A stretch of DNA of 64,000 bases, taken from an uncultured Pseudobdellovibrionaceae bacterium. GTDB taxonomy: Bacteria; Bdellovibrionota; Bdellovibrionia; Bdellovibrionales; JAGQZY01. How positions within the stretch are numbered: the first letter of the stretch is position 1; every line of letters begins with the position of its first letter. Below the pieces are notes generated by a model. The model made no database searches, was not told where the DNA came from, and saw nothing but the letters and a program-made list of their open reading frames with translations. Position numbers and translations under genes: made by a program. The stretch is from positions 13,290 through 77,289 of the forward strand of contig CAYNTO010000012.1 in the NCBI GenBank assembly GCA_964400355.1. Direction: 5' to 3'. Below, one piece after another: positions 1,892 to 23,499 of the stretch.

Positions 1892-1968
1892 CACTCAAGT
1901 ATTGAGAACAGACGAAATCTTGTCTACGCAAAAAGCACAGGCCGGTTCGTGCAAATAAAGCTTAACGA

Positions 1969-2904
1969 TCAAAAACGGTGACGTAGCAGCTTTTCTACTT
2001 CTGAGAAGTCGCCGGCGAGAGCCTTCACCGATCTGCCGGGAGAGTAAGCAACCAAAGTGGTGCCCTTAAGGTGCACCGAGGTTCCCTTGGGAAATAACAG
2101 GCCCTGACGATCATGTATGAGAATTCCATTATATCCCAAGCGTGAGGGCACAATGATATCTGTGGACACAATCGCGCGCTCCTTAAAGCGTTGTGCAAGA
2201 TCTTTGAGTGGTTTTTCTAAGGGGCTGGAATTCAAAAAGGCCTGCAGTGGGAGCACTGGGTTTTTTCGGCCCGAGTAGATAAGTATTTCTACTTCAGAAT
2301 TTTGCGGTGGCGCGACTCGAGCCATATATCCGCTCTCATCCTCGAGTTCAGGTAGATGTGTCATGTTTCCGATGCGCACGTATCCACCATTCTGCTCCGT
2401 TGAATCCATGGGGTAATTTTTCACCTTAAAATAACCGCAGAACTCTGTGTAAAAGCCTCGATCCGCCATTTCAGGATCCGTAATAACGTTATCGCTCTGG
2501 TCCTTCGTCGTCGCATCTGTGGATCCGGGTTTGTGGGACCAAAAGCGGTTGTCGTCGCGCCGATACCAGTGGAAATCATAGCCAGGTGCCACCACGAGAG
2601 CAATGAGCGTGTCCTCAGATTTGCTTTTTTGGGAAAACGCGTCTGTCGAGGTAATTCCCAGATCTTTCGTCGCAGCTCTCGTCACTTCCTCACAACTCAC
2701 ATCCTTATACATCGAATCGCTCGCTTCACCCGGTTGAGCAAAGGAGTGTGTAAGCCGGTTGGTGGAGTAATTGTAACAGTTGTTGTTCCACAGATTGCTG
2801 GTGTCGTTGTTCCAAAATTCCAGATCCACTTTAGGAACCGCAATCGTAGGCTTCTCCACACCGTGAGATAAAAGCAAATGGGACAAAAAAAACACAAGGA
2901 ACAC
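1969..2904 (-). CDS. secreted hypothetical protein (possible Cys/His hydrolase)
   Basis: 311-aa ORF with a hydrophobic N-terminus (MFLVFFLSHLLLSHG). WNNNCYNYS followed by YDFHWYRRDDNRFWSHKPG gives a Cys...His arrangement reminiscent of papain-fold hydrolases. I cannot assign a family. Confidence 0.5.
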   Translation of the reverse strand: MFLVFFLSHLLLSHGVEKPTIAVPKVDLEFWNNDTSNLWNNNCYNYSTNRLTHSFAQPGEASDSMYKDVSCEEVTRAATKDLGITSTDAFSQKSKSEDTLIALVVAPGYDFHWYRRDDNRFWSHKPGSTDATTKDQSDNVITDPEMADRGFYTEFCGYFKVKNYPMDSTEQNGGYVRIGNMTHLPELEDESGYMARVAPPQNSEVEILIYSGRKNPVLPLQAFLNSSPLEKPLKDLAQRFKERAIVSTDIIVPSRLGYNGILIHDRQGLLFPKGTSVHLKGTTLVAYSPGRSVKALAGDFSEVEKLLRHRF

Positions 2905-3019
2905 TATAACCCCCGCGAAAATATGTACTAGCCTAGTGCAGATTTTTCGGAGATGCCAACAAGTCTCACTTGGGCGCTAGAGTGTCATGAACTGATTCAG
3001 TGCGCGCCGTGGCTATTAT

Positions 3020-3997
3020 TTAAGCATATATTCTGCGAGCGTCAGGATGGGTGCTTTTCCACAAAAAAGAATCGAAAAAATAATGGCAGAATAACGGTGT
3101 GAGCAATAGTGCTGTGGTGAATGCCTGACCGTTGGAGCTCAGATCAAGCCACTCGTCCTCGACCCAATATTCGGCACTCCCAAAAATAAACGCCGTCAAA
3201 ACAACAACCGCAAGAGGGACGAAACCTTTGTAGAGAGTGGGTTCTATCCGTCGCAACGAGAGATCGGTGAGAGCCAAGTAGCTAAAGCCGTGACTGACAA
3301 CCAACGGAAAAAGAATTTGCGCCGCCGTTTCGCCGTTAATAAATGCACAACCGTAAAATAACGCCGCAAAAAAAACCGATAGCGTTCGGTTAAAGTCACC
3401 GTACCGGTAGAGGCGATAGGCCTCGAAGCCCAGCCAAGAGAATGAAACCACTGTAAAAAACGCGATCGCGACGACGTATACGGAGCTGTTAGGATAAAAA
3501 AACAGTTCATCTGTGGCGTAATACGCCGCCAACTTCGGCGTTTCCCGAAAATGAAATGCCACAAAGGGGACTGCGCACAGACTGTACAAAAAAATATCAG
3601 AAACTTTACTCCATTGCTTGTTGAGCTTTTGATACCATCTGGAGATTCCTAAAAGTTGCCGCACATTGTGAAAGACTGTCGCATACACAACAAAAGCTGC
3701 CAAATATTTCCATTGGAAGTGAACCCATAGATAAAAGACGGCAAAAAATACTATGGGAACGAGCCAATAGACAGAAGTTCGTTGGCGTTCAGAGGGGCGA
3801 AAGTATGTGCGCCAGAGTGTAGCGTAAACATGGCCGGAATCGAGGACTCCCGCGGAAACAAATGAAAACACCAGTAACGCCGCCGACTGTTCGCTGGAAG
3901 GAATCCAATGGCTCAACACGATAGCCAACACGCCTGGGGCGTAGAGCATCAAGATATCGATGTAGAGCTTGCTCCAGATCATAGTTGAATTGTACAT
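3020..3997 (-). CDS. polytopic integral membrane protein (~10 TM), unknown function
   Basis: 325-aa ORF made almost entirely of hydrophobic helices. Loop motifs rich in His/Arg include GHVYATLWRTYF, FHNVRQLLG, VVSHGFSY and CHYFFDSFLWK. The ATG at 3997 lies back-to-back with the divergent ORF at 3998. An alternative ATG is at 3982. Confidence 0.6.
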   Translation of the reverse strand: MYNSTMIWSKLYIDILMLYAPGVLAIVLSHWIPSSEQSAALLVFSFVSAGVLDSGHVYATLWRTYFRPSERQRTSVYWLVPIVFFAVFYLWVHFQWKYLAAFVVYATVFHNVRQLLGISRWYQKLNKQWSKVSDIFLYSLCAVPFVAFHFRETPKLAAYYATDELFFYPNSSVYVVAIAFFTVVSFSWLGFEAYRLYRYGDFNRTLSVFFAALFYGCAFINGETAAQILFPLVVSHGFSYLALTDLSLRRIEPTLYKGFVPLAVVVLTAFIFGSAEYWVEDEWLDLSSNGQAFTTALLLTPLFCHYFFDSFLWKSTHPDARRIYA

Positions 3998-4990
3998 TTG
4001 GGGCTGAAGGAAACAATGGAATTCATGAAGAAAACGAAATGGCTAAATATTCTCAACCCCGCCCCTGCCGCAGACGCAGAGTGGGATCTCGAAAAGTTGC
4101 ACACAGCTTTTGCGGTGAGCTCTTCTGGCCTTTTTGATTACACACTGATTACATTTGGACATAAACGCCTAAACCCCTGGCCGCTTGCTCAGTATGGCAT
4201 GGGCCGCGATTCACGCTTCTCTCCCCTTATTGCGATCAACCCTATATATAATCATCCCGTGGAAACCGCCCAAAAAGTAGCTACGCTATTAGCACTGTAT
4301 TCAAACAGCATAGGCATCAATTTGATTACCGGATCGTTTTTTAATGAAATGCAATCACTCAACGAAAACACCAGTCCGCAGCAAAAACAGACGCGTCTGG
4401 TGGAGTTTTTCAAAATTTTTAGTGCCTTAATCAATGACGGCGAACTCAAAGGCTTTGCAGGCGAGCACTACAACTTTTCAACAGTACGTATTCACAGGCC
4501 GGTTGCAAGAAAGGTGGCTGTTTTTATTTCGGGGCAGTTCGCAAGCACTGTCAGCGACGAAAATGTTTATTTTATCCACAATCTGCGCCCGCAGGACAGC
4601 CTCCCCGCTGCAACTCAAAAGAATTCTGGATTAGGATTGGGAATCTGCACTCGGCCCTCCGCCGAGGAAGCTCAAGCGGCATTGGATGAACATTGGCCCC
4701 AGTCTCGTGAAGGCGAAATAATGTTTAAGCTGAGCATGGCGAACTCACAAACTCCTTGGAACATTTGGCTCAGGGAACACTTGAAAACATCCTTGCCTAA
4801 AGATGCACAGTTTTGCTTACAACCATTGATGAACTTTCGATCCTCCTCGCCCTACTTGGTAGGAAGTTATGAATTCGTGCGAACACAAATTAAAAATTAC
4901 ACTGCAAAAGGTTATGACACCTTCTTGCTCGATTTCCGCCACGAAGACTTTGCCCATCTCGAAAGGTGCCTCAAGGATTTGGGGAGCTAA
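3998..4990 (+). CDS. LLM-class (luciferase-like) flavin-dependent oxidoreductase
   Basis: The pattern NHPVETAQKVATLLALYSNSIGINLITG...RLVEFFKIFSALINDGELKGFAGEHYNF follows the luciferase-like monooxygenase core (hP..Ak..atLd..s.GR..lNlvtG ... f.GeyY). The track start at 3998 is TTG. ATG at 4016, preceded by GAAGGA, is the more likely start. Confidence 0.65.
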   Translation: MGLKETMEFMKKTKWLNILNPAPAADAEWDLEKLHTAFAVSSSGLFDYTLITFGHKRLNPWPLAQYGMGRDSRFSPLIAINPIYNHPVETAQKVATLLALYSNSIGINLITGSFFNEMQSLNENTSPQQKQTRLVEFFKIFSALINDGELKGFAGEHYNFSTVRIHRPVARKVAVFISGQFASTVSDENVYFIHNLRPQDSLPAATQKNSGLGLGICTRPSAEEAQAALDEHWPQSREGEIMFKLSMANSQTPWNIWLREHLKTSLPKDAQFCLQPLMNFRSSSPYLVGSYEFVRTQIKNYTAKGYDTFLLDFRHEDFAHLERCLKDLGS

Positions 4991-6630
4991 CGGTGAAACT
5001 CCCAACGAGTGGAACCTCAAAGATATTGGCGGCGTCTCTCCTATTTGCGTTGTTAGTCGCAACCCTTGCCAACTACTGGCTGGCAAGCTCGCAAAATATT
5101 TTAGTCCATAATACGGAGTGGGCATCTGGTAAGCCCGAGATGCAATATCTTCTCAACGGCAGTGAAACATATACGTTCACTCGTCCAGCGCTTGCTATGA
5201 ATGTGCTGAACCTTCATCCGTGGTTTGGACGCCAAGAGGTGTATAGTAAAAAACAAGGGGTACTGACGCAGTTTTCATTCGAGTTCCGAATCTCCTACAA
5301 TGTCTATATCGATGTGGAACTTTCGCGCTCAGCGGAGGGTGTGCAAGGAGTTCGAATATACAACTCTCCTTTCAAACACTCGTTTCTCTATGTCGCTAAT
5401 CGCGACGGAGCTTTTTTGGAAAAAAGAGATTTGGGCAATATCTCCATTCACCCGTTCTTGGTTTGGAATAGCGTCGCAATTAATTACATTCCGTCCACTT
5501 CAAAACTTGAAGTTCGCGTGAACGAGAATACAGCATTCAATGGGAATTTCTCTCTACGTTCGGGGAGCATTGGCTTTCGCGGAGGTAACTACCGAGCCCA
5601 GATCGACAACGTGAAGGCCTCCTTTGATAATGGCCAACAGATTCGCGACGACTTTAAATTTCAACTGCCGCGCGGAGTCTGGTGGAAACATTTCTTTCTC
5701 GCGCTTGTGAGTGCAGGATTGCTAATAGCACTTTCGGTGGCATTCGGGCGCAGACGAGGCGCCGTACGCTTTCTCGGCTACGTTTTCACACTTATCGCGA
5801 TCGTTTTTTTGTTCGATATTGTCAACTGGTCTCGACGCTCACTTGCGTTTTACGATGATATTCTTTTAGAACTCTCTACTCCGGTCAGTTACGTCGAATT
5901 TTATCGAAAGCGATTTTTTAAACACTGGTACAAGCTGGTCACAGGGCACGACATTCTAACAGATGAACACATTCGCACTATTTTTTATAGTTTGCACCCA
6001 CAAGACAAACCGGTCATTTTCAAGGGACCGTTTATTTGCGATCAGCGGTTCGGCAGCTCGTGCGAAACGGTGGAGCCTTCACGTCCCATCGCTGTACAAA
6101 AACACGCCTGCAGGATCCTCCTGCTGGGTGGATCGCGCGGTGTGGGCACGGGGGCACGTCTGCGCGACGATCCTTACTTTGTCCAGATCTATCAAAAACT
6201 GCTTACCTATCAGCTTAAATGCGATGTGATGCTATACAATTTTACAGACAACAGAACCGATAATTTTCCAGAACAAGTGGCGAGCGGCATCATCGAGCAG
6301 ATTCAACCCCACGTGATTGTACTGGATTACTTATACCGCACTGACGAAGAAGTCGGATACATGTTAAAAGTTAAAAAAATTGCTGAGACTAATACTAAGA
6401 TATTCATTTTGGACAACTATCCCTCGCGTTACTCGCGAATGCTTGCTAAGAATGGCTATAAATCGATTCCCATCTACGAGATTTTAAACGCAGCAGAGAT
6501 GAAGGGTTCCGGTTTCATAAAATGGGATCAGCATCACACCACATCTTACGGTCACAAACTGATTGCAGAAGCTGCTGTGCCTTACATTTTCGAAGCTCTT
6601 CAGCTCCATCCGGATTACATTAAAAAGTAA
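4966..6630 (+). CDS. membrane-anchored two-domain protein: N-terminal beta-rich (ConA/LamG-like?) domain, 2 TM, C-terminal SGNH/GDSL-type (DltD/AlgJ-like) domain
   Basis: TM1 is ILAASLLFALLVATLANYWL. The N-terminal domain carries RSGSIGFRGGNYRAQIDNVKASF, a lectin-fold-like G.igfr..a.iDNv pattern. Two further TMs are HFFLALVSAGLLIALSVAF and FLGYVFTLIAIVFLFDIV. The C-terminal domain has ILLLGGSRGVG (GDS-like block I) and KWDQHHTTSYGHKLIAEA (SGNH block V, DxxH). The likely true start is GTG 4993, with GGGGAG 6 nt upstream, immediately after the upstream stop at 4988..4990. Confidence 0.6.
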   Translation: MPQGFGELTVKLPTSGTSKILAASLLFALLVATLANYWLASSQNILVHNTEWASGKPEMQYLLNGSETYTFTRPALAMNVLNLHPWFGRQEVYSKKQGVLTQFSFEFRISYNVYIDVELSRSAEGVQGVRIYNSPFKHSFLYVANRDGAFLEKRDLGNISIHPFLVWNSVAINYIPSTSKLEVRVNENTAFNGNFSLRSGSIGFRGGNYRAQIDNVKASFDNGQQIRDDFKFQLPRGVWWKHFFLALVSAGLLIALSVAFGRRRGAVRFLGYVFTLIAIVFLFDIVNWSRRSLAFYDDILLELSTPVSYVEFYRKRFFKHWYKLVTGHDILTDEHIRTIFYSLHPQDKPVIFKGPFICDQRFGSSCETVEPSRPIAVQKHACRILLLGGSRGVGTGARLRDDPYFVQIYQKLLTYQLKCDVMLYNFTDNRTDNFPEQVASGIIEQIQPHVIVLDYLYRTDEEVGYMLKVKKIAETNTKIFILDNYPSRYSRMLAKNGYKSIPIYEILNAAEMKGSGFIKWDQHHTTSYGHKLIAEAAVPYIFEALQLHPDYIKK

Positions 6631-7943
6631 AGGAAGGGCGGAAGAAACTCGTCGTCACTCCAAAGTTCTACCGTGAAAATATATGCAATAACGGCTACTG
6701 CCACTATGCCAACCTGAACCGGGAATGGCCAGCGCAAATAAAAATCCAGGTTTTTTTCTTTTTCCTGTTTGTATTCAATGAGAAAATAAAACGTGAGTAG
6801 GACAGCGAGCAAAAGATAAGGGAATGTACCAATTGGCGCGAATGGACTCCACAAAAGGAACCTGTCCGGTGAAAATAATTTGTAGGCGCGGTAGCTGGAT
6901 GTGATTAATCCATTGAACGACAGCACGCAAATTAATAGCACGCCGCCCAGAATAGCTTGTGCGTGTTTAAAAGTGCTGAACTTGGTTTGAATGTAAGAAT
7001 ATAAAACAACCGCCAGCCCGTTGCCAACACCAAAGGCCAACCAGCTCCAGTCGAATCCATGCCACAATCCGATCAGAACAAACGAAACCATAACTATTAA
7101 ATATTTATTCACCTTCCGACCAAACTGGAGCATGAGAGGGAAAGAAACAAAATCGCGAATCCAGTGGCTTACCGAGATATTCCAACGATCCCAGAGGTTC
7201 AGCGGATTGGCCGCAAACAACAGTGATCGAAAATTATAAGATAAGGTCACTCCGAAAACCGCTGCAGCGCCCCTTCCGCAATCGCTGAGCATCGCAAGAT
7301 GAACATAAATCCCGAGTGTCGTGATTAAACCGTATATTACGGCATTGATGGCCGCGTAGTCCGCAAACTCTAGAAGATTGCGGAGCTCTCGGATCCAAAA
7401 GACTAGTAAGAGATATTTAAATAAACCAACAATAAATATGAGCGCTCCACTGATTATTGATTTTACATTGACGGAATTCGTACGTGTGAAGTAATCGGCA
7501 CTCTGCGACTTAAAGACATGGATGGGGCCCGCCATGAGTGCTGGGAAAAAAGTTACGTTATTGTAAAGATCGAGGACGTGTACCACAGGTTTGGCAGATT
7601 GTGACCGAATCTGCAGTAGGAAAAGCGAAAGCAGGCCAAGAATTGCAAAGCTTAACCCATAAAGGGGGATGTGTTGAGTCTCGATGAGCATTCGCAGTAG
7701 CACGAAAGCAAGCACATCAAAAGTTAAGGCAATGTAGAGCTTGCGCGGCAAAGAGGACTTGAGCAGCCAATAGTTGACAACACATATTAAAAAATGAATG
7801 CCGGCCCATTGCCAACTCCAGCTGGCATGCCACAAAATATTCATGGTAAAAAATTTCCATCGGAACCAGCTGGCCGGGAGTAAGTAAAAGGCAAAGGCGC
7901 TCAAGGCTACAAAAAAAATGAATGCGCTGGATTCGTAAGTCAT
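6615..7943 (-). CDS. MBOAT-family membrane-bound O-acyltransferase (DltB/AlgI-like)
   Basis: 442-aa polytopic protein. WDRWNISVSHWIRDFVSFPL matches the AlgI/DltB WrrWhisLs.WlRDY.y.PL block. LIGLWHGFDWSW carries the conserved MBOAT histidine. Its start forms an ATGA overlap with the upstream ligase stop. Confidence 0.85.
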   Translation of the reverse strand: MTYESSAFIFFVALSAFAFYLLPASWFRWKFFTMNILWHASWSWQWAGIHFLICVVNYWLLKSSLPRKLYIALTFDVLAFVLLRMLIETQHIPLYGLSFAILGLLSLFLLQIRSQSAKPVVHVLDLYNNVTFFPALMAGPIHVFKSQSADYFTRTNSVNVKSIISGALIFIVGLFKYLLLVFWIRELRNLLEFADYAAINAVIYGLITTLGIYVHLAMLSDCGRGAAAVFGVTLSYNFRSLLFAANPLNLWDRWNISVSHWIRDFVSFPLMLQFGRKVNKYLIVMVSFVLIGLWHGFDWSWLAFGVGNGLAVVLYSYIQTKFSTFKHAQAILGGVLLICVLSFNGLITSSYRAYKLFSPDRFLLWSPFAPIGTFPYLLLAVLLTFYFLIEYKQEKEKNLDFYLRWPFPVQVGIVAVAVIAYIFTVELWSDDEFLPPFLYFLM

Positions 7944-9244
7944 AGACGCGGTCTCATCTTTTTTAGCCGTTCTGAAAAAATATCCGCGGCGAAAATTCTC
8001 ACTACTGCGGGAATCATGTAGCTGGGCAATTGACTCTCTGAGAAATCTTTAAAGTAAGATCGAAAATTTGTCTCCTCCTCATTCTCATTGAGGACGATAT
8101 CGACACATACTGCGTTTCCAATCAAAGGATGGCGCTGAGAGTAGGCCATGACATCTTTAACAGCTGTGATTCTGGAAATGATATCTTCCAATTCGGTGGG
8201 GAAGAATTTGCGACCTCCTACATTAATAGTTCCGTCCTGGCGACCGATGATACGGAAAAAATCGTGAGGATCTCTGTCGTCCACCACATCTCCCGTGCGG
8301 AACCAACCATCCGCATCGGCGCCGCCCTCGTGATTGAGGTAACCCAACATCATACATGGAGAGCGAACACTTAGCAGCCCACCTTCGATACGAAATGGAT
8401 TGATTTCTCTGTTCAGAGTCAATCTCCAAGGCCGCTCACCGTCTGTAATGGTTTTAAGAATTCCTACCTCCGTCATTCCATAGGTATGCATCAACTCAGC
8501 TCGAGGCAAGCGCTCCTGATAAGCTCGTAAAGTAGATTCGAGCGATGGCTCCGACCCAAAGGCGATTTTGCGGAGCGGCTGCAATTTATGGCTGCATGCT
8601 GCCAGCTCGGGTCTTAATAGGTTCATAAAACTCGGAGTGGTTTGAAAGTAGTCTACCGTTTGCGCGCTGATGACATCTATGATTTCCCTCGGTGAGAGTT
8701 TGTTATCGCAAAGTGCGAGGCGGGCGCGATGTGCATAGGCCTCGAGCAGGGTTTCCAATCCGGCTATGGAATCTAGGGGTGAAAAGGCCAAAGTGGTTTT
8801 ATAATGGGGGCCGATAGTTTTGTACTTTTTGAGGAATTTTTGTAAATCGTGAAGGACAAATTTGTGACGCACGCTCAGGGAGCCCGACGTTTTGACAATG
8901 CAAGGGCTACCGCTGATCGACGACAGATCGGCAATGACATTTGTTCCACGTCCCATATACGTCATCTTCACGTCACCAAATTCGCAGTCCATTCGAGCCG
9001 CCTCGACGACATCGGCCCTATAATGGGGATCATTGTAGCGGATGGCTGAACAGATATGGAAAGGTTGATGCTCTTCCACGAGAGCAATAACCTGTGCGAA
9101 CGTGTCACGAGCGTGTGCCGCGGGAAGAACTTTTAACGTCGTATTTCCGCGCCAAAGTGTCTTGTAGTGATCCACTGATTTTACAAATTCATTGTATGTT
9201 GTTGTGGAACAGTTCGAAATTAAAAACAAATCAGCCGGCATCAC
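7940..9244 (-). CDS. ANL-superfamily adenylate-forming ligase (DltA-like carrier-protein ligase)
   Basis: Adenylation core motifs are present: KTSGSLSVRHK (degenerate A3), YGMTE (A5), GWFRTGDV (A7) and GRQDGTINVGGRKFFPTELE (A8). At 434 aa it is short for the family. The track start is GTG 9244; an ATG lies at 9241. Confidence 0.8.
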   Translation of the reverse strand: MMPADLFLISNCSTTTYNEFVKSVDHYKTLWRGNTTLKVLPAAHARDTFAQVIALVEEHQPFHICSAIRYNDPHYRADVVEAARMDCEFGDVKMTYMGRGTNVIADLSSISGSPCIVKTSGSLSVRHKFVLHDLQKFLKKYKTIGPHYKTTLAFSPLDSIAGLETLLEAYAHRARLALCDNKLSPREIIDVISAQTVDYFQTTPSFMNLLRPELAACSHKLQPLRKIAFGSEPSLESTLRAYQERLPRAELMHTYGMTEVGILKTITDGERPWRLTLNREINPFRIEGGLLSVRSPCMMLGYLNHEGGADADGWFRTGDVVDDRDPHDFFRIIGRQDGTINVGGRKFFPTELEDIISRITAVKDVMAYSQRHPLIGNAVCVDIVLNENEEETNFRSYFKDFSESQLPSYMIPAVVRIFAADIFSERLKKMRPRL

Positions 9245-9542
9245 TGGCGCCCATTTTTTTTTGGATCAATGGAATTAACGAGTCTACCCGTGCAAAGTAA
9301 TTTGTGGATGTATCTATGATCTCGTCCGTTGCAAATTCCACTTTTGTTCCAACTTTATTGCAGAGAACCTCTTCAAGAACAAAAATAAAAGCAACAAGAC
9401 CCATGGAATCCAGAAGTGCTTGGGACGTTCCATAGAGTTGTGTCGACAACTCAGGACGGACGTCTTTGAAATGCGGCGTGTTCTGCGCACACTTTTCAAA
9501 AGTAGGAACGATAATTTCTTGAAAGATCTCCTGATCTGTCAT
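9231..9542 (-). CDS. carrier protein (DltC-like phosphopantetheine-attachment protein)
   Basis: 103 aa. ALLDSMGLVAFIFVLEE has the LDSxG serine context typical of D-alanyl carrier protein DltC, rather than the DSLD context of FAS ACP. Its start forms an ATGA overlap with the upstream crotonase stop. Confidence 0.75.
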   Translation of the reverse strand: MTDQEIFQEIIVPTFEKCAQNTPHFKDVRPELSTQLYGTSQALLDSMGLVAFIFVLEEVLCNKVGTKVEFATDEIIDTSTNYFARVDSLIPLIQKKMGASDAG

Positions 9543-10264
9543 TGCGAATTCCTCAAGAACAGTGCGATTCGCTGGCGTGTCTCATTGTCTTTGGCCAACT
9601 GTGACGATTGGCGCGCACATTTTACAAGAACCTGTTTGGTAATGCCGGAATTTTTAAGCAGCATCGCTTTAGTGACCGACAACGATCGTGCAGTGGCCTT
9701 TTCAAACTGATGTTGGCAATGTTCGATGTAAGCTTGCGTATTTGCCTCTACCGCGGAGAGGAGTCCGATTTCGAGAGCTCGATCGGCAGATATCACGGGA
9801 TGTAGCAGGGCTAGCTCTGCCAAACGCCGCGAACCCATTCGCCATTGGAGAAGAGGAGTGATAATTCCTGGCGAAAGTCCTAGACGAGTCTCGGTGAGCT
9901 GATAGGAGCTCTCAGGAGTGCCTACCGCGACATCGGCAGCGGCCAAGAGTCCGAGCGCCCCGCCTGTATTTTTGCCTTTAGCAGCACTCACAATAGGCAC
10001 AGCACAAGTAAGAAATGTCCAATACATTTCCGCAAGTGGCAAAAGGTTGGCTTCTTTATAAATCCACGCCAAGTCCGCACCCGACGACAAATTTTTTCCA
10101 CGACCTTCGAGCGCGATACAACGCACCTTAGAGCTGTACTTTTTAATCAGTGCCATTAACTGCTTTGCTATTTTCGAATCCATCGCATTTGCTTTTTCGG
10201 CTCGATCGATAACAATGTGCAAACGATTATTGACCACGGAAAAATCTATATGGCTCATGCCCAC
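9539..10264 (-). CDS. enoyl-CoA hydratase/isomerase (crotonase) family protein
   Basis: LEGRGKNLSSGADL and AAKGKNTGGALGLLAAADVAV match the crotonase oxyanion-hole segments. An ATG at 10258 gives an ATGA overlap with the type III PKS stop. Confidence 0.8.
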   Translation of the reverse strand: MGMSHIDFSVVNNRLHIVIDRAEKANAMDSKIAKQLMALIKKYSSKVRCIALEGRGKNLSSGADLAWIYKEANLLPLAEMYWTFLTCAVPIVSAAKGKNTGGALGLLAAADVAVGTPESSYQLTETRLGLSPGIITPLLQWRMGSRRLAELALLHPVISADRALEIGLLSAVEANTQAYIEHCQHQFEKATARSLSVTKAMLLKNSGITKQVLVKCARQSSQLAKDNETRQRIALFLRNSQ

Positions 10265-11310
10265 CTCAAGATAGCCGTCTCGATAGTTAGGCCAGGTCCC
10301 ATTGTAATCATAACGGCATTCTCATGGGCGTTTAAGGCTTGTGAATCTTGGTACAGCTGGTAGGTAGCCAGAAAGCTCGCGCTGGATATGTTTCCGTAGT
10401 GCTTGAGAGTTTCTCTGGTGTACTTGAGCGCCTCGGGTGGTAGCTCTAGCTTTTTTTCAATAGCGTCCAGAATAGCGGCTCCGCCCGTATGGACAATCCA
10501 GAGAGTCAACTGGTTGAGCGTTAAATTCTCGCGATCGAGTAGAGAGTTTATAGGAATATGTATGTGTCGCGCCAATGTTTCGGGAGTTTTTTTATCTATA
10601 AAAAAGCAGTTGCGATTTTGCGCCGAATTGTAATCAAAACGCAACATCGGTAATGACTCGGGAATAAGATACGATTGAAACTGACTGACACGCGGATATT
10701 TTCCAGCATGTTTGCCTGAAGATTCCAATAGGGCCACCGCTATGCCGTCACCAAAAAGCGAATTGACGAGATCCGTGTTCTCGCTACCATCCAAACAGTA
10801 AATAGCAGAGCAGATCTCCGCACACACCAGCAACCCCTTGCGCCCCGGATTGTCGGCGCACCAGTTTTTAACGGCCTTTAAGCCGTTCAACCCAGCATTG
10901 CACCCCATACTGACAACATCCAGCCGCTCGCAATCAGCGCGGAGTCCTAGGGTTTTGTACAGCAGAGCTGACAAGGACGGCACAATAAAACCCGTCGAGG
11001 TGATACAGCACACAAAATCGATGTGTTGCGAGGATACATTGAGTTTATTGAGCAGTCGAGAGGTCGCTTCCCGGGTGAGCTTTAAAGACTCGTTTTTAAA
11101 TCGCTCGATGAGTTGAGAATTAGTCTCGTTACTGTGTTCCAGTGACAGGTGGCGTTTTTCAATATGAGGGTGGTTGAAAAAACGTTCGAAGCTTTTTTGA
11201 TGAGGGCCTTCGATTCTCAGCTTTTGAAAAACCTCACGTTGCGTGAATGTCTGCACCGGAAATGCACTTTCAACCCCAAGAAAATAGACTTCGCGCGACT
11301 TTTCCATCAC
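10255..11310 (-). CDS. type III polyketide synthase (chalcone/stilbene synthase family)
   Basis: The Cys-His-Asn triad sits in type III PKS contexts. VSMGCNAGLNGL corresponds to the GC.AG Cys motif. WIVHTGGAAILD corresponds to HPGGPAILD. HYGNISSASF corresponds to YGNMSSACV. GPGLTIETAIL is also present. The length of 351 aa fits the family. Confidence 0.9.
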   Translation of the reverse strand: MMEKSREVYFLGVESAFPVQTFTQREVFQKLRIEGPHQKSFERFFNHPHIEKRHLSLEHSNETNSQLIERFKNESLKLTREATSRLLNKLNVSSQHIDFVCCITSTGFIVPSLSALLYKTLGLRADCERLDVVSMGCNAGLNGLKAVKNWCADNPGRKGLLVCAEICSAIYCLDGSENTDLVNSLFGDGIAVALLESSGKHAGKYPRVSQFQSYLIPESLPMLRFDYNSAQNRNCFFIDKKTPETLARHIHIPINSLLDRENLTLNQLTLWIVHTGGAAILDAIEKKLELPPEALKYTRETLKHYGNISSASFLATYQLYQDSQALNAHENAVMITMGPGLTIETAILRWA

Positions 11311-11340
11311 TGAAAAGATTAAAAGAATTTGTCCCGGGCA

Positions 11341-12405
11341 TCAAACAGTATTGATTGAGGACATCATGTCAAATGGCTCGATTCCCACCTGCCGAAGTAA
11401 GTCGGAGTCCATCTGCTTCACCTTGCGCGAACGCAAGTCCATGTTGTCTCCGCACAGCAATTTGTCGCAGACTATGGGCATTGAAGGAAGTTGGAAATGG
11501 GGATCGCGGTAAATATTGCCTACGGATCCACCAACAAAGCAGGAGCCGCGAAAGATCTCTCCTGCAGGATCAATCTTAATGTGATCCAAGCCCGCCCAGC
11601 AGTGCCACCCCTTAAAACTGTTGCGACGATGAAATACCAAATCGTTGTAATGAAATTCCTCGCTGATGAGAACACCATCGCTGCGGGAGAAGAGTTTTAG
11701 TTTTTTTTGCCGCTCCTCCTTCATGAGTCCGATGATGGCTGCGCGCTCACTCTCTGCGAATTTGTCCTCGTACCCCACTCTTTTTACACCGGGCACTTTG
11801 GGTTCTTTATAATTTGGTCCCTTCACCATCCTCAACTCACAACGCTCGAGCTTTTGATCTTTAAATGTTTCAAACAGATACTGCACCTGCTCCGACTGCC
11901 CAGGCGCCACCATAATACGCACAATTAGAGTTTTTTGATGAGTACCAGCGACACGATTCCACTGGTTTTTCCACTCCTCCAGCTGGAGAATTTTTTCCAC
12001 ATACAGCTGAAGACGCGGCGCCATTGCCTCCAAGTGCAAACTAATCACTACACAATCCAGCAGATTAAAGAGTTCCACCAAATACTCAATGGGTCGAAAC
12101 CCGTTTGTTGTAATACTGATTACGGAAGGGTCGCGCTCGCGCATGTAGGAACACAGTTGTAAAAAATCGGGATGGAGGGTCGGCTCACCACCAGTAAGAC
12201 TCCAGCTAATGTTGCGTCCATGATGGCGCGTCAGTATATCTACGACTCTCTGCATATCCGCCAGAGGCACATGAGGTGAGCGTTGGTCATGAATAATATC
12301 ACTGCAATAGGAACAATCAAAATTGCACCTTTTTCCCACGTACCAATCCACCACCATCCCTGGTTTACGCGAAGGATAAAATAGAGCGACGGGTTGGGCG
12401 TCCAT
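11341..12405 (-). CDS. radical SAM protein with Cys-rich C-terminal (twitch/SPASM-like) extension
   Basis: GKRCNFDCSYCS is the CX3CX2C radical-SAM motif, and TGGEPTL is the SAM-binding GGE motif. The C-terminus reads HCWAGLDHIKIDPAGEIFRGSCFVGG...VCDKLLC. Confidence 0.85.
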   Translation of the reverse strand: MDAQPVALFYPSRKPGMVVDWYVGKRCNFDCSYCSDIIHDQRSPHVPLADMQRVVDILTRHHGRNISWSLTGGEPTLHPDFLQLCSYMRERDPSVISITTNGFRPIEYLVELFNLLDCVVISLHLEAMAPRLQLYVEKILQLEEWKNQWNRVAGTHQKTLIVRIMVAPGQSEQVQYLFETFKDQKLERCELRMVKGPNYKEPKVPGVKRVGYEDKFAESERAAIIGLMKEERQKKLKLFSRSDGVLISEEFHYNDLVFHRRNSFKGWHCWAGLDHIKIDPAGEIFRGSCFVGGSVGNIYRDPHFQLPSMPIVCDKLLCGDNMDLRSRKVKQMDSDLLRQVGIEPFDMMSSINTV

Positions 12406-12491
12406 TACTCTCTACGATAAGGGTGATCGATTTCGGTGGTCAAGGCGTGGCATCCTATTAGACATTGCAAAAATGAAATGTCACGGCTAGC

Positions 12492-13751
12492 GTGGAATCG
12501 ACGATGAGTGCTCAAAACCCAGATACTGACATAGTACCCTCAGCGGCCGCTACCGCTGCTCTCACGGACATAGAAAACCGAGCCACGTCGTCCCCTTCGT
12601 TTTGCGGGTTACCCTGGCGACATCTGTTTGTATCCCCCGACGGCAATGTGAAACCCTGTTGCAGGTATATACGCGGCAAAAATTTTCCCGAAGTCAGTAA
12701 CCCCGCGCAAGCATTCCACAGTACCTACTGGGAAAACCTGCGCCGGGATATGCTCCACAACAAAACAATTGCCGGTTGCGCCAAATGCGACCAGGAAGAG
12801 CGATTAAATACAAAAAGTCTGAGAGAAAAAATAAATACAGATGCCGTCTACGCCATCAACCCTTTAGAAGACAAGCCCGAGGCCCACACTCTCGAGGTGG
12901 CGTTTTCAAACACGTGCAATTTGTCGTGTATTATGTGTGATTCTCGCTTTAGCAGTGCATGGACGATGGTGGAAAAACAACTCTTTGGTAAAACGCTATA
13001 TCCAGAGAAAAAATTTCGCTTTAACGCGCAAGATTTAAACGCCTTCCCGGGCCTCCGTTTACTCAAAGTCACAGGTGGCGAACCGTTTTTAGAACATCAA
13101 ATCCATTTGGCGACTCTGAACTATATCGTCGAATTTCTCAAGCCTGAGGGTTTCCGACTGGATTACAGCACCAATCTCACCGTCCTCCCAAAACCGCAAA
13201 TCATCGAACAGTGGGCGAAGTTTGAACGCGTGGAAGTGACGCTCAGTTTGGATTCCATCTTCGAAAACGAACTCAAATACATCCGTTATCCTTCGGATGC
13301 GGCCACCATCCGTACCCATGTGCGATTTTATTTGGAGTTGATGAACCAACTCCCCAACCTCCACGTCGTAGTACGGCCAACTGTACACGTTCTCAATATA
13401 GCCAGCATGCTCTACACGATGCAGTGGTGGTACTCAGAAAAACAAAAATACGCCATTGACGACCGCTGCAAAGACTCGGTTTCTTTCTTAGCTTATCCGG
13501 AGTTTCTGCAGCCCACTGCGCTCTCCCCGGATGAACAACTTCGAGTGCGTCACCTTGTAGAAAATTTTACGATCACAAAAAGTGACCATAAGAATTTGCT
13601 GCACCACCAAACACGGCTTCTCAATTACCTGCATGAAAAGCCATTTGATCCGCGCCATGCTCAGAAACTCAAAGAATTTTTAAAAGCAATGGATTCGCAC
13701 AGAGGAACTCACTTTCGCGCACAGTTCGAATATTTAAATGATGCCCGTTAG
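12492..13751 (+). CDS. radical SAM protein with N-terminal twitch/SPASM-type Cys-rich domain (permuted order)
   Basis: The N-terminus FCGLPWRHLFVSPDGNVKPCCRY...GCAKCDQEE is a SPASM/twitch-type auxiliary-cluster signature. It is followed by FSNTCNLSCIMCDS (CX3CX2C) and VTGGEPFL. The track start is GTG 12492; an ATG lies at 12504. Confidence 0.8.
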   Translation: MESTMSAQNPDTDIVPSAAATAALTDIENRATSSPSFCGLPWRHLFVSPDGNVKPCCRYIRGKNFPEVSNPAQAFHSTYWENLRRDMLHNKTIAGCAKCDQEERLNTKSLREKINTDAVYAINPLEDKPEAHTLEVAFSNTCNLSCIMCDSRFSSAWTMVEKQLFGKTLYPEKKFRFNAQDLNAFPGLRLLKVTGGEPFLEHQIHLATLNYIVEFLKPEGFRLDYSTNLTVLPKPQIIEQWAKFERVEVTLSLDSIFENELKYIRYPSDAATIRTHVRFYLELMNQLPNLHVVVRPTVHVLNIASMLYTMQWWYSEKQKYAIDDRCKDSVSFLAYPEFLQPTALSPDEQLRVRHLVENFTITKSDHKNLLHHQTRLLNYLHEKPFDPRHAQKLKEFLKAMDSHRGTHFRAQFEYLNDAR

Positions 13752-15481
13752 TAGGGCGTGTGACGGAACTCGGTGATGCTCTCTTTACTAGTGTCGGCAA
13801 TCAATCGACCCACGATCGTTGGTCCCAGGCGTATACGACGATCGTCGCCGATATAACGATTAATTTTAAGCATATAGTCTGCCAAGGAGCCATTGTCCAA
13901 AAGGTAACCGTACATATTCTGCATAAACAATTTTGTTTCTGCTTTGCTCAATCCACTTCTTAGAAGTGCATACAGCAAATAATCATTCTGAAAAAACAAT
14001 GTTTTATCGAAACTGTAAATGCTCCACAACATTTCAAGACGTCGTTCCGATTCAGGAACGCGCTCTTCCCAACACATACCACCGATCTCATCGTAGGCAG
14101 CGATGCGGCCGTTGTCGGCCACCGCGCGGATGCGTAGGTTGTATTTTTCTGGGTCCGATGCATAATAGGTGTTAGCAAGCAGGCGAAAAATATTCACTTC
14201 GATACAGTCGTAGAGATCAGTGCGGTCTTTAATAAAATTATGAGTGAGCATATAATCTTCGACAGTTTCATGGGGAAACGCCAGGATGAGATACAATCCA
14301 CTCCAAATTCCAAATTTCTGCGCGGTCTGCAGTGTGCGGTAGACATCCTCGACTGTGGCCTGCTTATTGTTTTGCAAAAGCAGTTTGGGGCTCAAGGTTT
14401 CGGCTCCAAACCACAGCTTGACACATCCGGCTTTAGCTAAAGTTCCAAGAATTTTTTCGGAAGTATGAATCATATTCGCCGAATCGGAAAAAAAGATGCC
14501 GATGTTGGCCTCTATTATTTTTTCCGCCAACTGCACTGGAAAAATAGGCCCCAAATTGACATTGTCATTGTACCAGCGGTAATTCTCGAATCCTTTTTTG
14601 CGAAGCACAGTGAGATGATGAACGACATCATCTGCAGAGTGTGTGCGCACGGCGGTGTCTTTACCAGATTGGCAAAACGTGCATTTGTACGGGCAACCCA
14701 GAGTGTGACGATAGGGAATTAATGTCAGGGGATCTTGATCGCGCAAACGCGGCTCTTGGCGAATGAGATCTTCTGGAAACAGATCCTTGAACTCTACAAA
14801 CAAATCGGCTTTGTTGATGACGTCATATTTGGGCGTAAAATTGCTCTGGCGGAAAAGACTATTATCGACAATAAACCGATCGTTCCCGTGGAGCGGGCCT
14901 TCGCCATTGAAATAATTTTTGAGTGCTACGGGAAAGACGCCATGACTGTTGCGGGTAAAGTAGTAATCGATCGCTCGACCCGCCAATCGATCTGCAAGCT
15001 TCCGCGCATAATTGATACCCACATCTTTGATCAGCTCTTTACCGCCAGCCAAGATGATGGCGGTCGTGCGCTTACGAATTTCGGCCGCTAGCAAATTGGC
15101 GAAATGTAAAGTGCCGCGACTCATAAATGTTTCAAATCCGACCTTATCCATGGAAATGGCAACCGCATCATAGCGCTTTACGTCTCCGACAAGCTCCATG
15201 CAGTGATCCAACCAGCGTTGAACCCACATCGAAGTTTTTGCGCCATGGACTTCGGCAATAACTTGCTCGTCGTTGGTGAGTACACTTTTGTCTCCCTCTG
15301 ACAGATACTCCTCGCCACGTATCTTTGTAAGAGCCGCATTGAGGTCATAAAAATCCACTTCAAACCCGTGATGCTCAAGAGCACCAGCAACCATGGCCGA
15401 CCCCAAGCTCAGTTCCTGATACAGCTTTGGCTGAAACAGAGTGATGTTTGGACTCAAAAGAAACAGGATTTTCTTAGCCAT
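13748..15481 (-). CDS. B12-binding-domain radical SAM protein (class B)
   Basis: The N-terminal Rossmann-like segment KILFLLSPN...LGSAMVAGALEHHGFEVDFYDLN is typical of the cobalamin-binding domain. It is followed by TLGCPYKCTFCQS (CX3CX2C). 577 aa. Confidence 0.8.
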   Translation of the reverse strand: MAKKILFLLSPNITLFQPKLYQELSLGSAMVAGALEHHGFEVDFYDLNAALTKIRGEEYLSEGDKSVLTNDEQVIAEVHGAKTSMWVQRWLDHCMELVGDVKRYDAVAISMDKVGFETFMSRGTLHFANLLAAEIRKRTTAIILAGGKELIKDVGINYARKLADRLAGRAIDYYFTRNSHGVFPVALKNYFNGEGPLHGNDRFIVDNSLFRQSNFTPKYDVINKADLFVEFKDLFPEDLIRQEPRLRDQDPLTLIPYRHTLGCPYKCTFCQSGKDTAVRTHSADDVVHHLTVLRKKGFENYRWYNDNVNLGPIFPVQLAEKIIEANIGIFFSDSANMIHTSEKILGTLAKAGCVKLWFGAETLSPKLLLQNNKQATVEDVYRTLQTAQKFGIWSGLYLILAFPHETVEDYMLTHNFIKDRTDLYDCIEVNIFRLLANTYYASDPEKYNLRIRAVADNGRIAAYDEIGGMCWEERVPESERRLEMLWSIYSFDKTLFFQNDYLLYALLRSGLSKAETKLFMQNMYGYLLDNGSLADYMLKINRYIGDDRRIRLGPTIVGRLIADTSKESITEFRHTPY

Positions 15482-15538
15482 TCTTCAAAAGTCTGTGCCA
15501 GCGCCATTGGAGATACAATGAAAAATAGCCACTGAACA

Positions 15539-16624
15539 ATGCGTCGACATCCCTACCCTTTTTACAGCGTTTACAGAATCAGTAGCCCTAAAGGGTGCGG
15601 ACCTCATATACTCGCCCTTCACACGGAATGGGGTTCAGTGTTTAAATATCTCTCAGTTTCTGGATTCATTTTGAGTAGCATTGTGTTTTCAACCGCAGTG
15701 GCCGATGTGCCCACAATGACTCTTGACCAAATTCTCGCTGAAGCAATAAACAAGAAAAAAACGTACCTACCAGAGTTTCTCCGCGAGTCTGTAGCGCGCT
15801 GCGAACTCCATTTGACTCCAAGCAACCTGGGTCGTTCCTGCTTGGAAGAGGTTCGGGAACAAACATTTAGTATTCTCACCTGCGAGAGCACTCTATCCCG
15901 ATGGCAAGAAATGGGAGCACTCGACGACCATGACATGGATGCGATGCTCGAATCTTACCCCTCTACAGATGTGCCTCCAGACATTAAAACAGTCTTTGAA
16001 GAACTTGTAAATATCGCTGCTCGCCAGTGGCGAAATACCCCAGCGGTTCAAAAATTCCCTCTCCCCCAGTGGAGCATAGAGGCCTATGCGGCGGACTATT
16101 ACAATGCTCATGCAGGTGCCAACGGAAGCATACTCATCTCCAGCCAATTCTGGCAAACCGCTTCGCCATTTTCAGTCGATGAGATTCGTGCAATTTTAGC
16201 TCATGAAGTGGCCCATGTATTATTGAATCATTCTCTCGAACTGGGATGCCTCTACTTTGAGTGGTCCAACCAACCGAGCACCGCTTCTCTTCTGGACGCT
16301 CGGGAAATTATTCACGGTGATTTTTCGGTAACTATGGGCGCAGGCAAAGCGTGGTCCGAGCTCTCTCAAAAAAATGAATTCCGCGCTGATGCGATGGCCG
16401 TGGAGCTGCTTTACAACTTGCACTACGATGGGCTGGCGATGGCCCGCGCGATTCAAAAAATTTATGATCATTCTCCGAAAGGTGGTTTTAGCTCTGGCAG
16501 TCACCCCGACCTCCTCGACCGCGTCGAAGAGGCTCGCCGAAAAGCCACGACCTACGGACCGCCGCGAACGCTGAAAAATTCGCTCTCTAAAATAGCCTCG
16601 GCAGGCCTCACCAGAAAATCCTAA
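15539..16624 (+). CDS. M48-like zinc metallopeptidase, secreted or membrane-anchored
   Basis: ILAHEVAHVLLNH is an HExxH motif, and a downstream NEFRADAMAVELL is present. The hydrophobic segment FILSSIVFSTAVA follows a doubtful N-terminal extension. GTG 15638 is an alternative start. Confidence 0.6.
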   Translation: MRRHPYPFYSVYRISSPKGCGPHILALHTEWGSVFKYLSVSGFILSSIVFSTAVADVPTMTLDQILAEAINKKKTYLPEFLRESVARCELHLTPSNLGRSCLEEVREQTFSILTCESTLSRWQEMGALDDHDMDAMLESYPSTDVPPDIKTVFEELVNIAARQWRNTPAVQKFPLPQWSIEAYAADYYNAHAGANGSILISSQFWQTASPFSVDEIRAILAHEVAHVLLNHSLELGCLYFEWSNQPSTASLLDAREIIHGDFSVTMGAGKAWSELSQKNEFRADAMAVELLYNLHYDGLAMARAIQKIYDHSPKGGFSSGSHPDLLDRVEEARRKATTYGPPRTLKNSLSKIASAGLTRKS

Positions 16625-16778
16625 ATACCCGCCAGGGAGCCAGAAACCAATTAAGGTTATAAAGCCCTACCAACAATAGCGAACGCAAGGGACGGGCAAT
16701 ACGCGCGAAGCGCAAAATTTAATGATCGAAAAATTTAGAAATACTGGACCAGCTACCAACAGCCGGAAAATTTTGAAG

Positions 16779-16854
<76 letters not shown>

Positions 16855-16916
16855 TCTTAAAGGTCAGGGGAATCTTATCTGATATAATCTAGGATTGAGT
16901 CAAGAGAAGGAACGAC

Positions 16917-16940
16917 AAGGCCCACATTGACGCGGGCCTT
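16917..16940 (-). terminator. stem-loop downstream of ORF 16966..17484 (no U-tract)
   Basis: AAGGCCC-N10-GGGCCTT is a perfect 7-bp inverted repeat 25 nt past the stop. It lacks a T-run, so terminator function is uncertain. Confidence 0.3.
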
Positions 16941-16965
16941 CTAAATCGCACTGTTTACTGTAGAA

Positions 16966-22273: not shown

Positions 22274-22297
22274 CTCCTAACGGACTCTGCCTGACTT

Positions 22298-23496: not shown

Positions 23497-23499
23497 TGC

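Follow-up and report, generated by a model that had tools for sequence, protein, structure and literature searches.

A 64,000-nt stretch of DNA from an uncultured Pseudobdellovibrionaceae bacterium (contig CAYNTO010000012.1, positions 13,290 to 77,289; hereafter the window) carries eleven open reading frames (ORFs) at positions 3020-15481, and seven of these belong to a cassette of genes that have stayed linked, in shuffled order, across Bdellovibrionota. The seven genes encode a DpgA-like type III polyketide synthase (PKS), a crotonase-fold protein (ECH), a luciferase-like (LLM) flavin monooxygenase, an ANL-superfamily adenylating enzyme (hereafter the ligase), a putative acyl or aryl carrier, an MBOAT (membrane-bound O-acyltransferase), and a membrane-anchored protein with an SGNH domain and a lectin-like domain. 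Very probably, they form a single functional unit. We propose that this unit makes a small aromatic acyl group, loads it onto the carrier, and exports and transfers it to a glycan of the cell envelope. Taken as a whole, this model with three modules (cargo synthesis, loading, and export/transfer) has in our judgment an even chance of being correct.

Conservation of a seven-gene cassette

The original prediction, made from the sequence of the window, described eleven contiguous genes with almost no intergenic DNA, and the ORF coordinates bear this out, since neighbors overlap by 4-25 nt or lie no more than 86 nt apart. The strand switches four times across the eleven ORFs, which therefore do not constitute one operon. 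Within them, the genes for the PKS, the crotonase, the carrier, the ligase, and the MBOAT follow each other in that order in a single codirectional run with overlapping stop and start codons.

We scanned one genome per GTDB species with an alignment of the PKS, which gave 80 loci, and metagenomes with an alignment of the LLM, which gave 9 further loci. All loci were searched for partner genes with phmmer and custom hidden Markov models. Many relatives of the window PKS are 43-52% identical to it, and wherever the PKS is at least 43% identical to that of the window, the partner genes are present (16/16 loci), except where the contig ends. These 16 core loci, five of which are among the further metagenome loci, represent about 14-16 lineages (Bacteriovorax, Bdellovibrio, Pseudobdellovibrio, Bacteriovoracaceae, and metagenome loci). 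In contrast, the partner genes are missing from all 74 loci whose DpgA-type PKS is more distant, which come from Myxococcota, Proteobacteria metagenome-assembled genomes (MAGs), and Actinomycetota (Fisher p = 5e-18, for loci that are not phylogenetically independent). All-against-all clustering returned exactly seven families common to at least 10 of 11 clade loci, and nothing else: PKS, crotonase, LLM, ligase, carrier, MBOAT, and SGNH protein. Within our sampling, the cassette is limited to predatory-type Bdellovibrionota. The conservation of neighborhood envisaged in the original prediction thus holds for these seven genes, but not for the three radical-SAM genes and a 325-residue membrane protein, which are shared with a sister lineage only.

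Linkage has been kept while gene order has changed. There are at least nine gene orders among the core loci, yet the crotonase gene adjoins the PKS gene in all 16, and the MBOAT gene is next to the gene for the extracytoplasmic SGNH protein in 15 of the 16, as well as in one other locus, L088. The carrier gene lies directly upstream of the ligase gene in every core locus that reaches that position, and the carrier, ligase, and MBOAT genes are contiguous in that order wherever all three occur, the exception being L003, where a 68-residue ORF separates carrier and ligase. Close homologs of the MBOAT are rare, with two clusters above 31% identity among 5.8 billion proteins, and the contigs of both bear the same genes as the window. 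Since linkage persists across about 14-16 lineages in shuffled order, the genes are not chance neighbors. These findings show that the predicted association of a ligase, a carrier-like protein, an MBOAT, and an SGNH protein with a PKS and a crotonase is real and conserved through rearrangement, although the carrier assignment is weak.

The cassette exists without radical-SAM genes. In Bacteriovorax stolpii (CP030035.1) and in one MAG, relatives of the PKS are accompanied by the crotonase, LLM, ligase, carrier, MBOAT, and SGNH genes and by no radical-SAM gene. The complete seven-gene form of B. stolpii lies at about 3,311,857-3,319,246, between pgk and tpiA. In both Bacteriovorax loci (L005, CP030035.1, 7708-18686; L010, 43-6845), the cassette is inserted between pgk and tpiA-secG, inside an otherwise conserved gap-pgk-tpiA-secG block. 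Two variants indicate that the cassette is modular. The Pseudobdellovibrio sp. SF1_2_22 locus (L012, 5105-9516) retains the PKS, crotonase, LLM, ligase, and carrier genes, and L088 (9998-14602) combines an MBOAT and an SGNH-lectin protein of the same families with an unrelated ANL ligase and a 74-residue DUF6356 protein. In L088, whose contig ends about 330 bp past the gene for the 74-residue protein, PKS, crotonase, and LLM genes are all absent within 10 kb.

Predicted functions of the seven core proteins

Most of the original family assignments hold. Profile matches confirm the LLM, the MBOAT, the ANL enzyme, the crotonase, the type III PKS, and three radical-SAM proteins (PF04055), and the SGNH assignment stands as well, while those of a carrier and of a B12-binding domain are weaker.

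The PKS (core gene 1; 10255-11310, minus strand; 351 residues) matches the N- and C-terminal Chal_sti_synt domains of Pfam (PF00195 and PF02797), and its catalytic Cys137, His274, and Asn307 are invariant in 30 members of the clade. On the NCBIfam DpgA model (NF042429), it scores 310 bits over the full length and does not reach the cut-off of 425. Its clade relatives from B. stolpii and L095 score 387 and 368 bits, and the model gives 652 bits to Amycolatopsis DpgA, 502 to a Myxococcota PKS, and 398 to a PKS from a gammaproteobacterial MAG. The best match in the Protein Data Bank (PDB) is Pks11, with 132 bits. Three loops, VGMGCNAGLNGL, HW(I/L)VHSGG, and YGN(I/L)SS, are common to the clade and the DpgA group. 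At the loop of the catalytic His (residues 274-282, about 10465-10491), the clade mostly has HSGGAAILD and the window VHTGGAAILD, whereas the DpgA-type outgroup PKSs all have HSGGKKV(V/I)D. The loss of this Lys pair might be related to the handling of CoA-bound versus carrier-bound substrates. Judged by these comparisons, the clade is a sister of DpgA and includes no equivalog of it.

The crotonase (core gene 2; 9539-10264, minus strand; 241 residues) matches PF00378 with 77.7 bits, and its gene overlaps the stop codon of the PKS gene by 10 nt. The protein has lost the first catalytic Glu typical of crotonases (GGALGL at residue 101), and Glu125 is invariant. DpgA, DpgB, and DpgD together convert four malonyl-CoA to 3,5-dihydroxyphenylacetyl-CoA. 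Since the PKS is a sister of DpgA and is always adjacent to a crotonase, DpgA/DpgB-like chemistry leading to an aromatic acyl thioester seems the best guide to the pair. The original prediction had named alkylresorcinol and pyrone head groups as known products of type III PKSs; the score on NF042429, the DpgA-like loops, and the adjacent crotonase point instead to DpgA/DpgB-like chemistry. The resemblance to the DpgA-D pathway, which supplies 3,5-dihydroxyphenylglycine in glycopeptide and nonribosomal peptide synthetase (NRPS) clusters of Actinomycetota and is also found in Myxococcota, lies in a full-length sister of DpgA with the same Cys, His, and Asn loops, and in a crotonase-fold gene always beside it, as with dpgB and dpgD. 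The cassette differs from that pathway in a PKS below the DpgA cut-off, with HSGGAAILD in place of HSGGKKV, and in its single crotonase. It contains no second crotonase, no ECH-fold DpgC of about 430 residues, no aminotransferase, and no NRPS, and has an LLM and a Dlt-like module instead.

The LLM (core gene 7; 3998-4990, plus strand) is about 320-330 residues long, its true start probably being Met7 or Met10, and matches PF00296 with 48.8 bits. A profile built from 11 orthologs matches the FMNH2-dependent enzymes SfnG and SsuD (E = 2e-15 to 1e-14), and the 10 aligned orthologs are 33-63% identical to the window protein. Although at first treated as peripheral, it is a core member, present in all 16 core loci. 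Its nearest outgroup relative (27% identity; L100, 613-10879) is encoded directly downstream of an NRPS (A-T-C-A-MT-T), and given this neighbor, this branch of LLMs may act on carrier-tethered substrates. A Lux-like reading, in which the LLM would work with an acyl-protein synthetase, was rejected because LuxC and LuxD equivalents are missing and the ligase matches AMP-binding enzymes and not LuxE.

The ligase (core gene 4; 7940-9244, minus strand; 434 residues, with a short N-terminal subdomain) matches PF00501 and PF13193. Motifs A3 (KTSGS at 118), A5 (HTYGMTE), A7 (TGD at 317), A8, and A10 (Lys429) are conserved in 10 orthologs. Among solved structures, those of 4-chlorobenzoate-CoA ligase (45 bits), FadD10, and EntE/DhbE come nearest, as compared to 28 bits for DltA (7r27) in the same PDB search, and no DltA model is among the best 25 of 84 NCBIfam matches. 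Since DltA is thus a more remote relative of the ligase than aryl and fatty-acyl ligases are, D-alanine is an unlikely cargo, in line with the original suspicion that something other than D-alanine is carried. The putative carrier (core gene 3; 9231-9542, minus strand; 103 residues) has an Asp45-Ser46 pair followed by a hydrophobic helix, which is invariant in 10 orthologs, and Ser46 is the candidate phosphopantetheine site. An hhalign comparison with DltC and Escherichia coli acyl carrier protein (ACP) places Ser46 on Ser36 of both, weakly (P = 0.0014-0.002). Together with its place beside the ligase, this makes a carrier function plausible.

The MBOAT (core gene 5; 6615-7943, minus strand; 442 residues) is DltB-like and matches PF03062 with 30.2 bits against a cut-off of 27. 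Its catalytic His295, in the motif GLWHG, and Asn255, in RWN, are invariant in orthologs. The SGNH protein (core gene 6; 4966-6630, plus strand; 554 residues) has no Pfam match on its own. A word-indexed homolog search with an alignment of 41 sequences returned only the query, whereas an exhaustive search found a family of 649 cluster representatives of the same length and architecture. The GDSL-lipase model PF13472 is matched by 31 of the 41 family members, the DltD Pfam model by none of them, and a PDB search with the family profile finds GDSL esterases (E = 1e-13). Gly388, Ser390, and His524 never vary in alignments of 41 and 60 members, and Asp521 varies little or not at all. An AlphaFold2 (AF2) model computed from the 60-sequence alignment (pLDDT 92.8, pTM 0.91) comprises, in order, a transmembrane (TM) helix (residues 16-42), a beta-sandwich (52-228), a TM hairpin (236-286), and an alpha/beta domain (about 356-552). 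Foldseek matches the sandwich to folds of the CBM66, DUF1080, LamG, galectin, and glucanase types, and for the C-terminal domain it finds GDSL esterases, among them an acetyl-mannan esterase. Because Arg262-264 lie at the turn of the hairpin, the positive-inside rule would place both soluble domains, lectin-like and SGNH, in the periplasm.

The SGNH-lectin protein also occurs elsewhere, and the idea that it is specific to this system was rejected because relatives stand alone (L092) or in a polysaccharide cluster (L090). A solitary member of the family adjoins gap-pgk in L089. In Pseudobdellovibrio L003 (12329-15699), there are two tandem paralogs of 560 and 562 residues, and this locus also has an alpha/beta-hydrolase gene and the extra 68-residue ORF beside the carrier gene. 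We considered as well whether the cassette accounts for the acylation of prey peptidoglycan in bdelloplasts, which is described in older Bdellovibrio biochemistry. This was rejected because the SGNH protein is predicted to be anchored in the predator's own inner membrane and to face its own periplasm.

The last four proteins invite comparison with known envelope-acylation systems. In the Dlt relay, D-alanine passes via DltA, DltC, DltB, and DltD. The cassette resembles this Firmicutes system (DltA, DltC, DltB, DltD, DltX) in having an adenylating enzyme, a putative carrier of about 80-100 residues with its Ser in an LDS motif, an MBOAT bearing the invariant His, and an anchored extracytoplasmic SGNH-type partner, and in the contiguity of carrier, ligase, and MBOAT genes. 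The differences are several. No cassette component reaches a Dlt equivalog threshold (DltB, 76.6 bits against 375; DltA, 28 bits in the PDB search), and the ligase instead resembles aryl and fatty-acyl ligases. The SGNH partner, with its TM helix, lectin-like or carbohydrate-binding module (CBM)-like domain, TM hairpin, and SGNH domain, differs in architecture from DltD, so that its role is analogous only. No conserved DltX-like gene was seen in the cassette loci, although L003 has its 68-residue ORF, and the cassette always comes with a PKS, a crotonase, and an LLM. Furthermore, its hosts, which appear to be Gram-negative given a PilQ secretin and MlaD in the window, would lack teichoic acids.

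AlgX and PatB are periplasmic SGNH O-acyltransferases, and AlgX has a CBM. The pairing of an inner-membrane MBOAT with a periplasmic SGNH transferase is shared with AlgI-AlgJ-AlgF-AlgX (alginate), PatA-PatB (peptidoglycan), and WssH-WssI (cellulose), and the joining of an SGNH domain to a CBM with AlgX. However, these systems transfer acetate without a dedicated ligase, carrier, PKS, or LLM, whereas in the cassette the ligase and carrier-like genes are contiguous with that for the MBOAT. To our knowledge, wherever a bacterial MBOAT with an extracytoplasmic SGNH partner next to it has been characterized, the system acylates a glycan or teichoic acid. In Vibrio cholerae, AlmEFG, which adds glycine to lipid A, likewise modifies a Gram-negative envelope with a DltA-like ligase and a small carrier, but its transferase AlmG is an LpxL-family enzyme working at the cytoplasmic face, and no MBOAT, SGNH protein, or PKS accompanies it.

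Radical-SAM genes and other neighbors

The other four of the eleven ORFs are lineage-specific neighbors or additions that lie outside the conserved system. The radical-SAM protein rSAM354 (11341-12405, minus strand; 354 residues) matches PF04055 with 58.4 bits and no specific family. Its gene is 30 nt upstream of the PKS gene, on the same strand as the PKS-to-MBOAT run, and orthologs occupy the same place in L001, L002, and L103 only, the 14 remaining core loci having none. An 86-nt spacer separates it from the divergently transcribed gene for an N-terminal twitch/SPASM radical-SAM protein (12492-13751, plus strand; 419 residues). This protein passes the N_Twi_rSAM model NF033640 (251 bits, cut-off 170), and its SPASM domain (38-100) precedes the radical-SAM core (138-268), so that the permuted architecture first read from the sequence is correct. 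L001 has an ortholog in the same divergent layout, plus a second N-twitch paralog in the position that the window gives to a class-B-like radical-SAM protein (13748-15481, minus strand; 577 residues). The latter is found only in the window, as no ortholog was present in any other locus compared, L001 included. It matches PF04055 with 67.9 bits, and the B12-binding model PF02310 over 27 residues with 22.4 bits, below the cut-off of 32.1. Matches to B12-dependent radical-SAM methylase families are weak and mostly confined to the radical-SAM core, and the sole PDB match is AprD4 (21 bits). None of the three radical-SAM proteins matches a characterized radical-SAM function in NCBIfam or PDB searches.

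The 325-residue polytopic membrane protein (3020-3997, minus strand) has no Pfam or NCBIfam match even at E = 5 and falls into no known family. Several of its His are conserved, its hydrophobic segments number about 7-10, and it is 72% identical to its L001 ortholog. We rejected a fatty-acid-hydroxylase-like identity because it has no His-box motifs and no Pfam match. Like the N-twitch protein, it is absent from core loci other than the sister lineage L001/L002/L103, and the initial inclusion of this protein, described as having about ten TM segments, in the system is not upheld. Synteny between the window and L001 runs on into a 311-residue orphan in no known family (1969-2904, minus strand) and a partial large ORF (2-1894, minus strand) homologous to the alpha-2-macroglobulin-like gene of L001. 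Since synteny with the sister lineage reaches these unrelated flanks, the sharing of the radical-SAM genes and of that for the 325-residue protein could be plain synteny.

GC content is flat throughout the cluster region (0.45-0.49). A promoter scan of 1800-17000 gave 22 sites as compared to 18.3 expected in shuffled sequences, and a terminator scan of the same region gave 18 against 16.8, so that no operon boundaries can be drawn from them. A tRNA-Ala gene (TGC; 16779-16854, minus strand) lies about 1.3 kb from the radical-SAM end of the cluster, between an M48 peptidase gene (15539-16624) and a 172-residue orphan ORF. No integrase was seen near it, and a genomic-island reading was rejected on account of the flat GC content and the lack of integrase or repeat signals. 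Farther on, positions 20066-25151 (minus strand) encode a PilQ-type secretin (735 residues; Secretin, STN, and Secretin_N domains), followed by four small codirectional pilMNOP-like ORFs. Housekeeping genes elsewhere in the window encode CarB, PurH, LepA, an AddAB-like helicase-nuclease, and MlaD, and the region is therefore chromosomal. In other genomes, fatty-acid-hydroxylase genes (PF04116) lie near the cassette in three lineages (L001, 1-852; L007, 16528-18029 and 18022-20750; L088, 795-1886), in L007 together with a DUF6999 gene and a gene for a KASIII/heme-oxygenase-like fusion protein. Their recurrence may hint at a connection to lipids.

A proposed acylation pathway, its alternatives, and its significance

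In the pathway we propose, the PKS and the adjacent crotonase would convert malonyl units in the cytoplasm to a small aromatic acyl thioester, most likely 3,5-dihydroxyphenylacetyl-like, which the FMNH2-type LLM would oxidize. The short ANL enzyme would activate the resulting acid and thioesterify it onto Ser46 of the DltC-like carrier of about 100 residues. At the cytoplasmic face, the MBOAT would accept the acyl group from the carrier, using His295, and relay it across the inner membrane. The lectin/CBM-like domain of the SGNH protein would then bind a glycan, perhaps lipopolysaccharide (LPS), peptidoglycan, or exopolysaccharide, onto which the SGNH domain (Ser390/Asp521/His524) would esterify the acyl group. 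The parts of this scheme deserve different degrees of trust. It is likely that the MBOAT and the SGNH protein work together as a module that transfers acyl groups to a glycan outside the cytoplasm, and the ligase and carrier probably feed the MBOAT, though here we are somewhat less sure. Whether the cargo derives from the PKS we judge to be evenly balanced, and its identification as a dihydroxyphenylacetyl-like group is tentative. Our results establish the domain identities, the catalytic residues, the predicted fold and topology of the SGNH protein, and the co-occurrence of the seven genes, from which the order of the steps, the function of the carrier, the cargo, and the acceptor are inferred.

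Several observations weigh against this pathway. With 310 bits, the PKS stays short of the 425 bits required of a DpgA equivalog, and it has Ala-Ala in place of Lys-Lys beside its catalytic His, so its product may differ from that of DpgA. A PKS product released as a CoA thioester would need a ligase only after hydrolysis, and the core has no dedicated thioesterase. The putative carrier has no match in Pfam (10 orthologs, E = 5), in NCBIfam, or in the PDB (phmmer and profile searches), and its single-sequence AF2 model is poor (pLDDT 53.6), with no fold match in Foldseek. The only NCBIfam match of the MBOAT, to the DltB model TIGR04091, is far below the cut-off (76.6 against 375 bits). In L012, the MBOAT gene is cleanly missing between the ligase and LLM genes, and there is no SGNH gene on the 15.4-kb contig. 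Finally, some members of the SGNH family have no MBOAT with them, being found alone among housekeeping genes (L092) or in a cluster of TPR, glycosyltransferase, and sulfotransferase genes (L090).

One alternative is a phenolic-lipid route, in which the ligase and carrier provide the PKS with a fatty-acyl starter for an alkylresorcinol or pyrone membrane lipid, which the LLM then hydroxylates and the MBOAT and SGNH protein esterify or remodel in the envelope. In the cylindrocyclophane system (CylA/CylB/CylI) and in that for Azotobacter cyst lipids (ArsABCD), a type III PKS is supplied in just this manner by a fatty-acyl-AMP ligase and an ACP. Solved relatives of the ligase include the fatty-acyl enzymes FadD10 and FadD5, the alkylpyrone synthase Pks11 is the closest solved PKS, fatty-acid-hydroxylase genes recur in L001, L007, and L088, and L012 keeps ligase and carrier with PKS, crotonase, and LLM, yet has neither MBOAT nor SGNH protein. 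However, we consider this route unlikely. The PKS scores 310 bits on the DpgA model as compared to 132 with Pks11 and has the catalytic loops of DpgA, whereas the Cyl and Ars enzymes, which use long acyl starters to produce alkylresorcinols, do not resemble DpgA and are accompanied by no crotonase, MBOAT, or SGNH protein. An obligatory neighboring crotonase is a hallmark of DpgA/B/D chemistry and not of alkylresorcinol synthases, the nearly always contiguous and often overlapping carrier-ligase-MBOAT order mirrors the logic of dlt, and the SGNH partner bears a carbohydrate-binding-type domain. Less probable still is that the cassette combines two independent functions, with the PKS, crotonase, and LLM making a free aromatic metabolite, and the ligase, carrier, MBOAT, and SGNH protein forming a Dlt-like system whose cargo is ordinary, for example a short acyl group or an amino acid. 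PKS-crotonase pairs do stand alone in other phyla (L014-L087, L017 having a close crotonase), L088 has its MBOAT and SGNH protein with a different ligase and no nearby PKS, and L012 shows that the halves are separable. Nevertheless, despite no fewer than nine rearrangements, each of the 16 clade loci has retained the two halves, or else the PKS with ligase and carrier as a minimum, and no further family is co-conserved with them. These ligase, carrier, and LLM families were found only beside this PKS clade, the halves are translationally coupled in one run in the window, and the ligase is not DltA-like.

A wider unit of all eleven genes, in which the three radical-SAM proteins and the 325-residue protein are integral tailoring or transport parts, for example for C-methylation of an aromatic cargo or acceptor, strikes us as doubtful. 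The gene for rSAM354 is on the strand of the PKS gene and only 30 nt upstream, that for the N-twitch protein diverges from it over 86 nt, and both features, as well as the 325-residue protein (72% identity), are kept in L001/L002/L103, even though identity there is no higher than 53% for the MBOAT and 38% for the SGNH protein. On the other hand, these genes are absent from 13-14 other cassette lineages, synteny with L001 extends to unrelated flanks, so that shared ancestry explains their co-location, the class-B-like protein is window-only with a B12 domain below threshold, and no characterized radical-SAM function is matched by any of the three. A radical-SAM-tailored or C-methylated cargo, which was part of the original prediction, thus finds no comparative support, since these enzymes occur only in the window and one sister lineage. 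In the lineage of the window, the two to three added radical-SAM proteins and the 325-residue protein may tailor the cargo or the acceptor. Least probable is a cluster for a diffusible secondary metabolite of the antiSMASH T3PKS kind, where MBOAT and SGNH protein would serve self-resistance or the acylation or deacylation of the metabolite. An uncharacterized T3PKS region is listed for Bdellovibrio (PMC12843806), and SGNH enzymes are often esterases. But the SGNH protein of the cassette is membrane-anchored with a lectin/CBM-like domain, and the B. stolpii cassette lies within the gap-pgk-tpiA-secG housekeeping block. The characterized pairs of an MBOAT and an extracytoplasmic SGNH protein are, moreover, as far as is known, all glycan or teichoic-acid acyltransferases.

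We therefore return to envelope acylation by the seven-gene cassette. As far as we know, MBOAT-based envelope acylation in characterized bacteria involves acetate or D-alanine only, and D-alanylation is the sole characterized MBOAT route that uses a carrier protein. The cassette could hence set two precedents, a carrier-dependent MBOAT relay that serves something other than D-alanylation, and the covalent grafting of a type III PKS product onto a bacterial envelope glycan, a double claim that we put forward with some reserve, as it is less likely to hold than to fail. A full-text literature search of limited coverage found no description of the combination of such a PKS with a Dlt-like cassette, which agrees with the original statement that no characterized pathway has it. 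A Bdellovibrio genome paper lists an antiSMASH T3PKS region only (PMC12843806), and the T3PKS regions of some Bdellovibrionota genomes may be envelope-modification loci of this kind.

If the proposed pathway is correct, envelope chemistry would be widened to polyketide-derived aromatic esters, and a type III PKS would gain a structural role rather than one in secondary metabolism. In the lineage of the window, radical-SAM enzymes would further elaborate the pathway. The complete form in the finished genome of the culturable B. stolpii (CP030035.1) makes the cassette testable. With a Dlt-like machine, predatory Bdellovibrionota would cover the LPS, peptidoglycan, or exopolysaccharide of their own envelope in a phenolic ester of the dihydroxyphenylacetyl type. 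Such a coat could give the cells a redox-active or adhesive surface, or could mark "self" or protect it from the lytic enzymes of the predator. Since the surface of a predator must withstand its own hydrolytic arsenal, this modification could bear on the question of how these bacteria distinguish self from prey.

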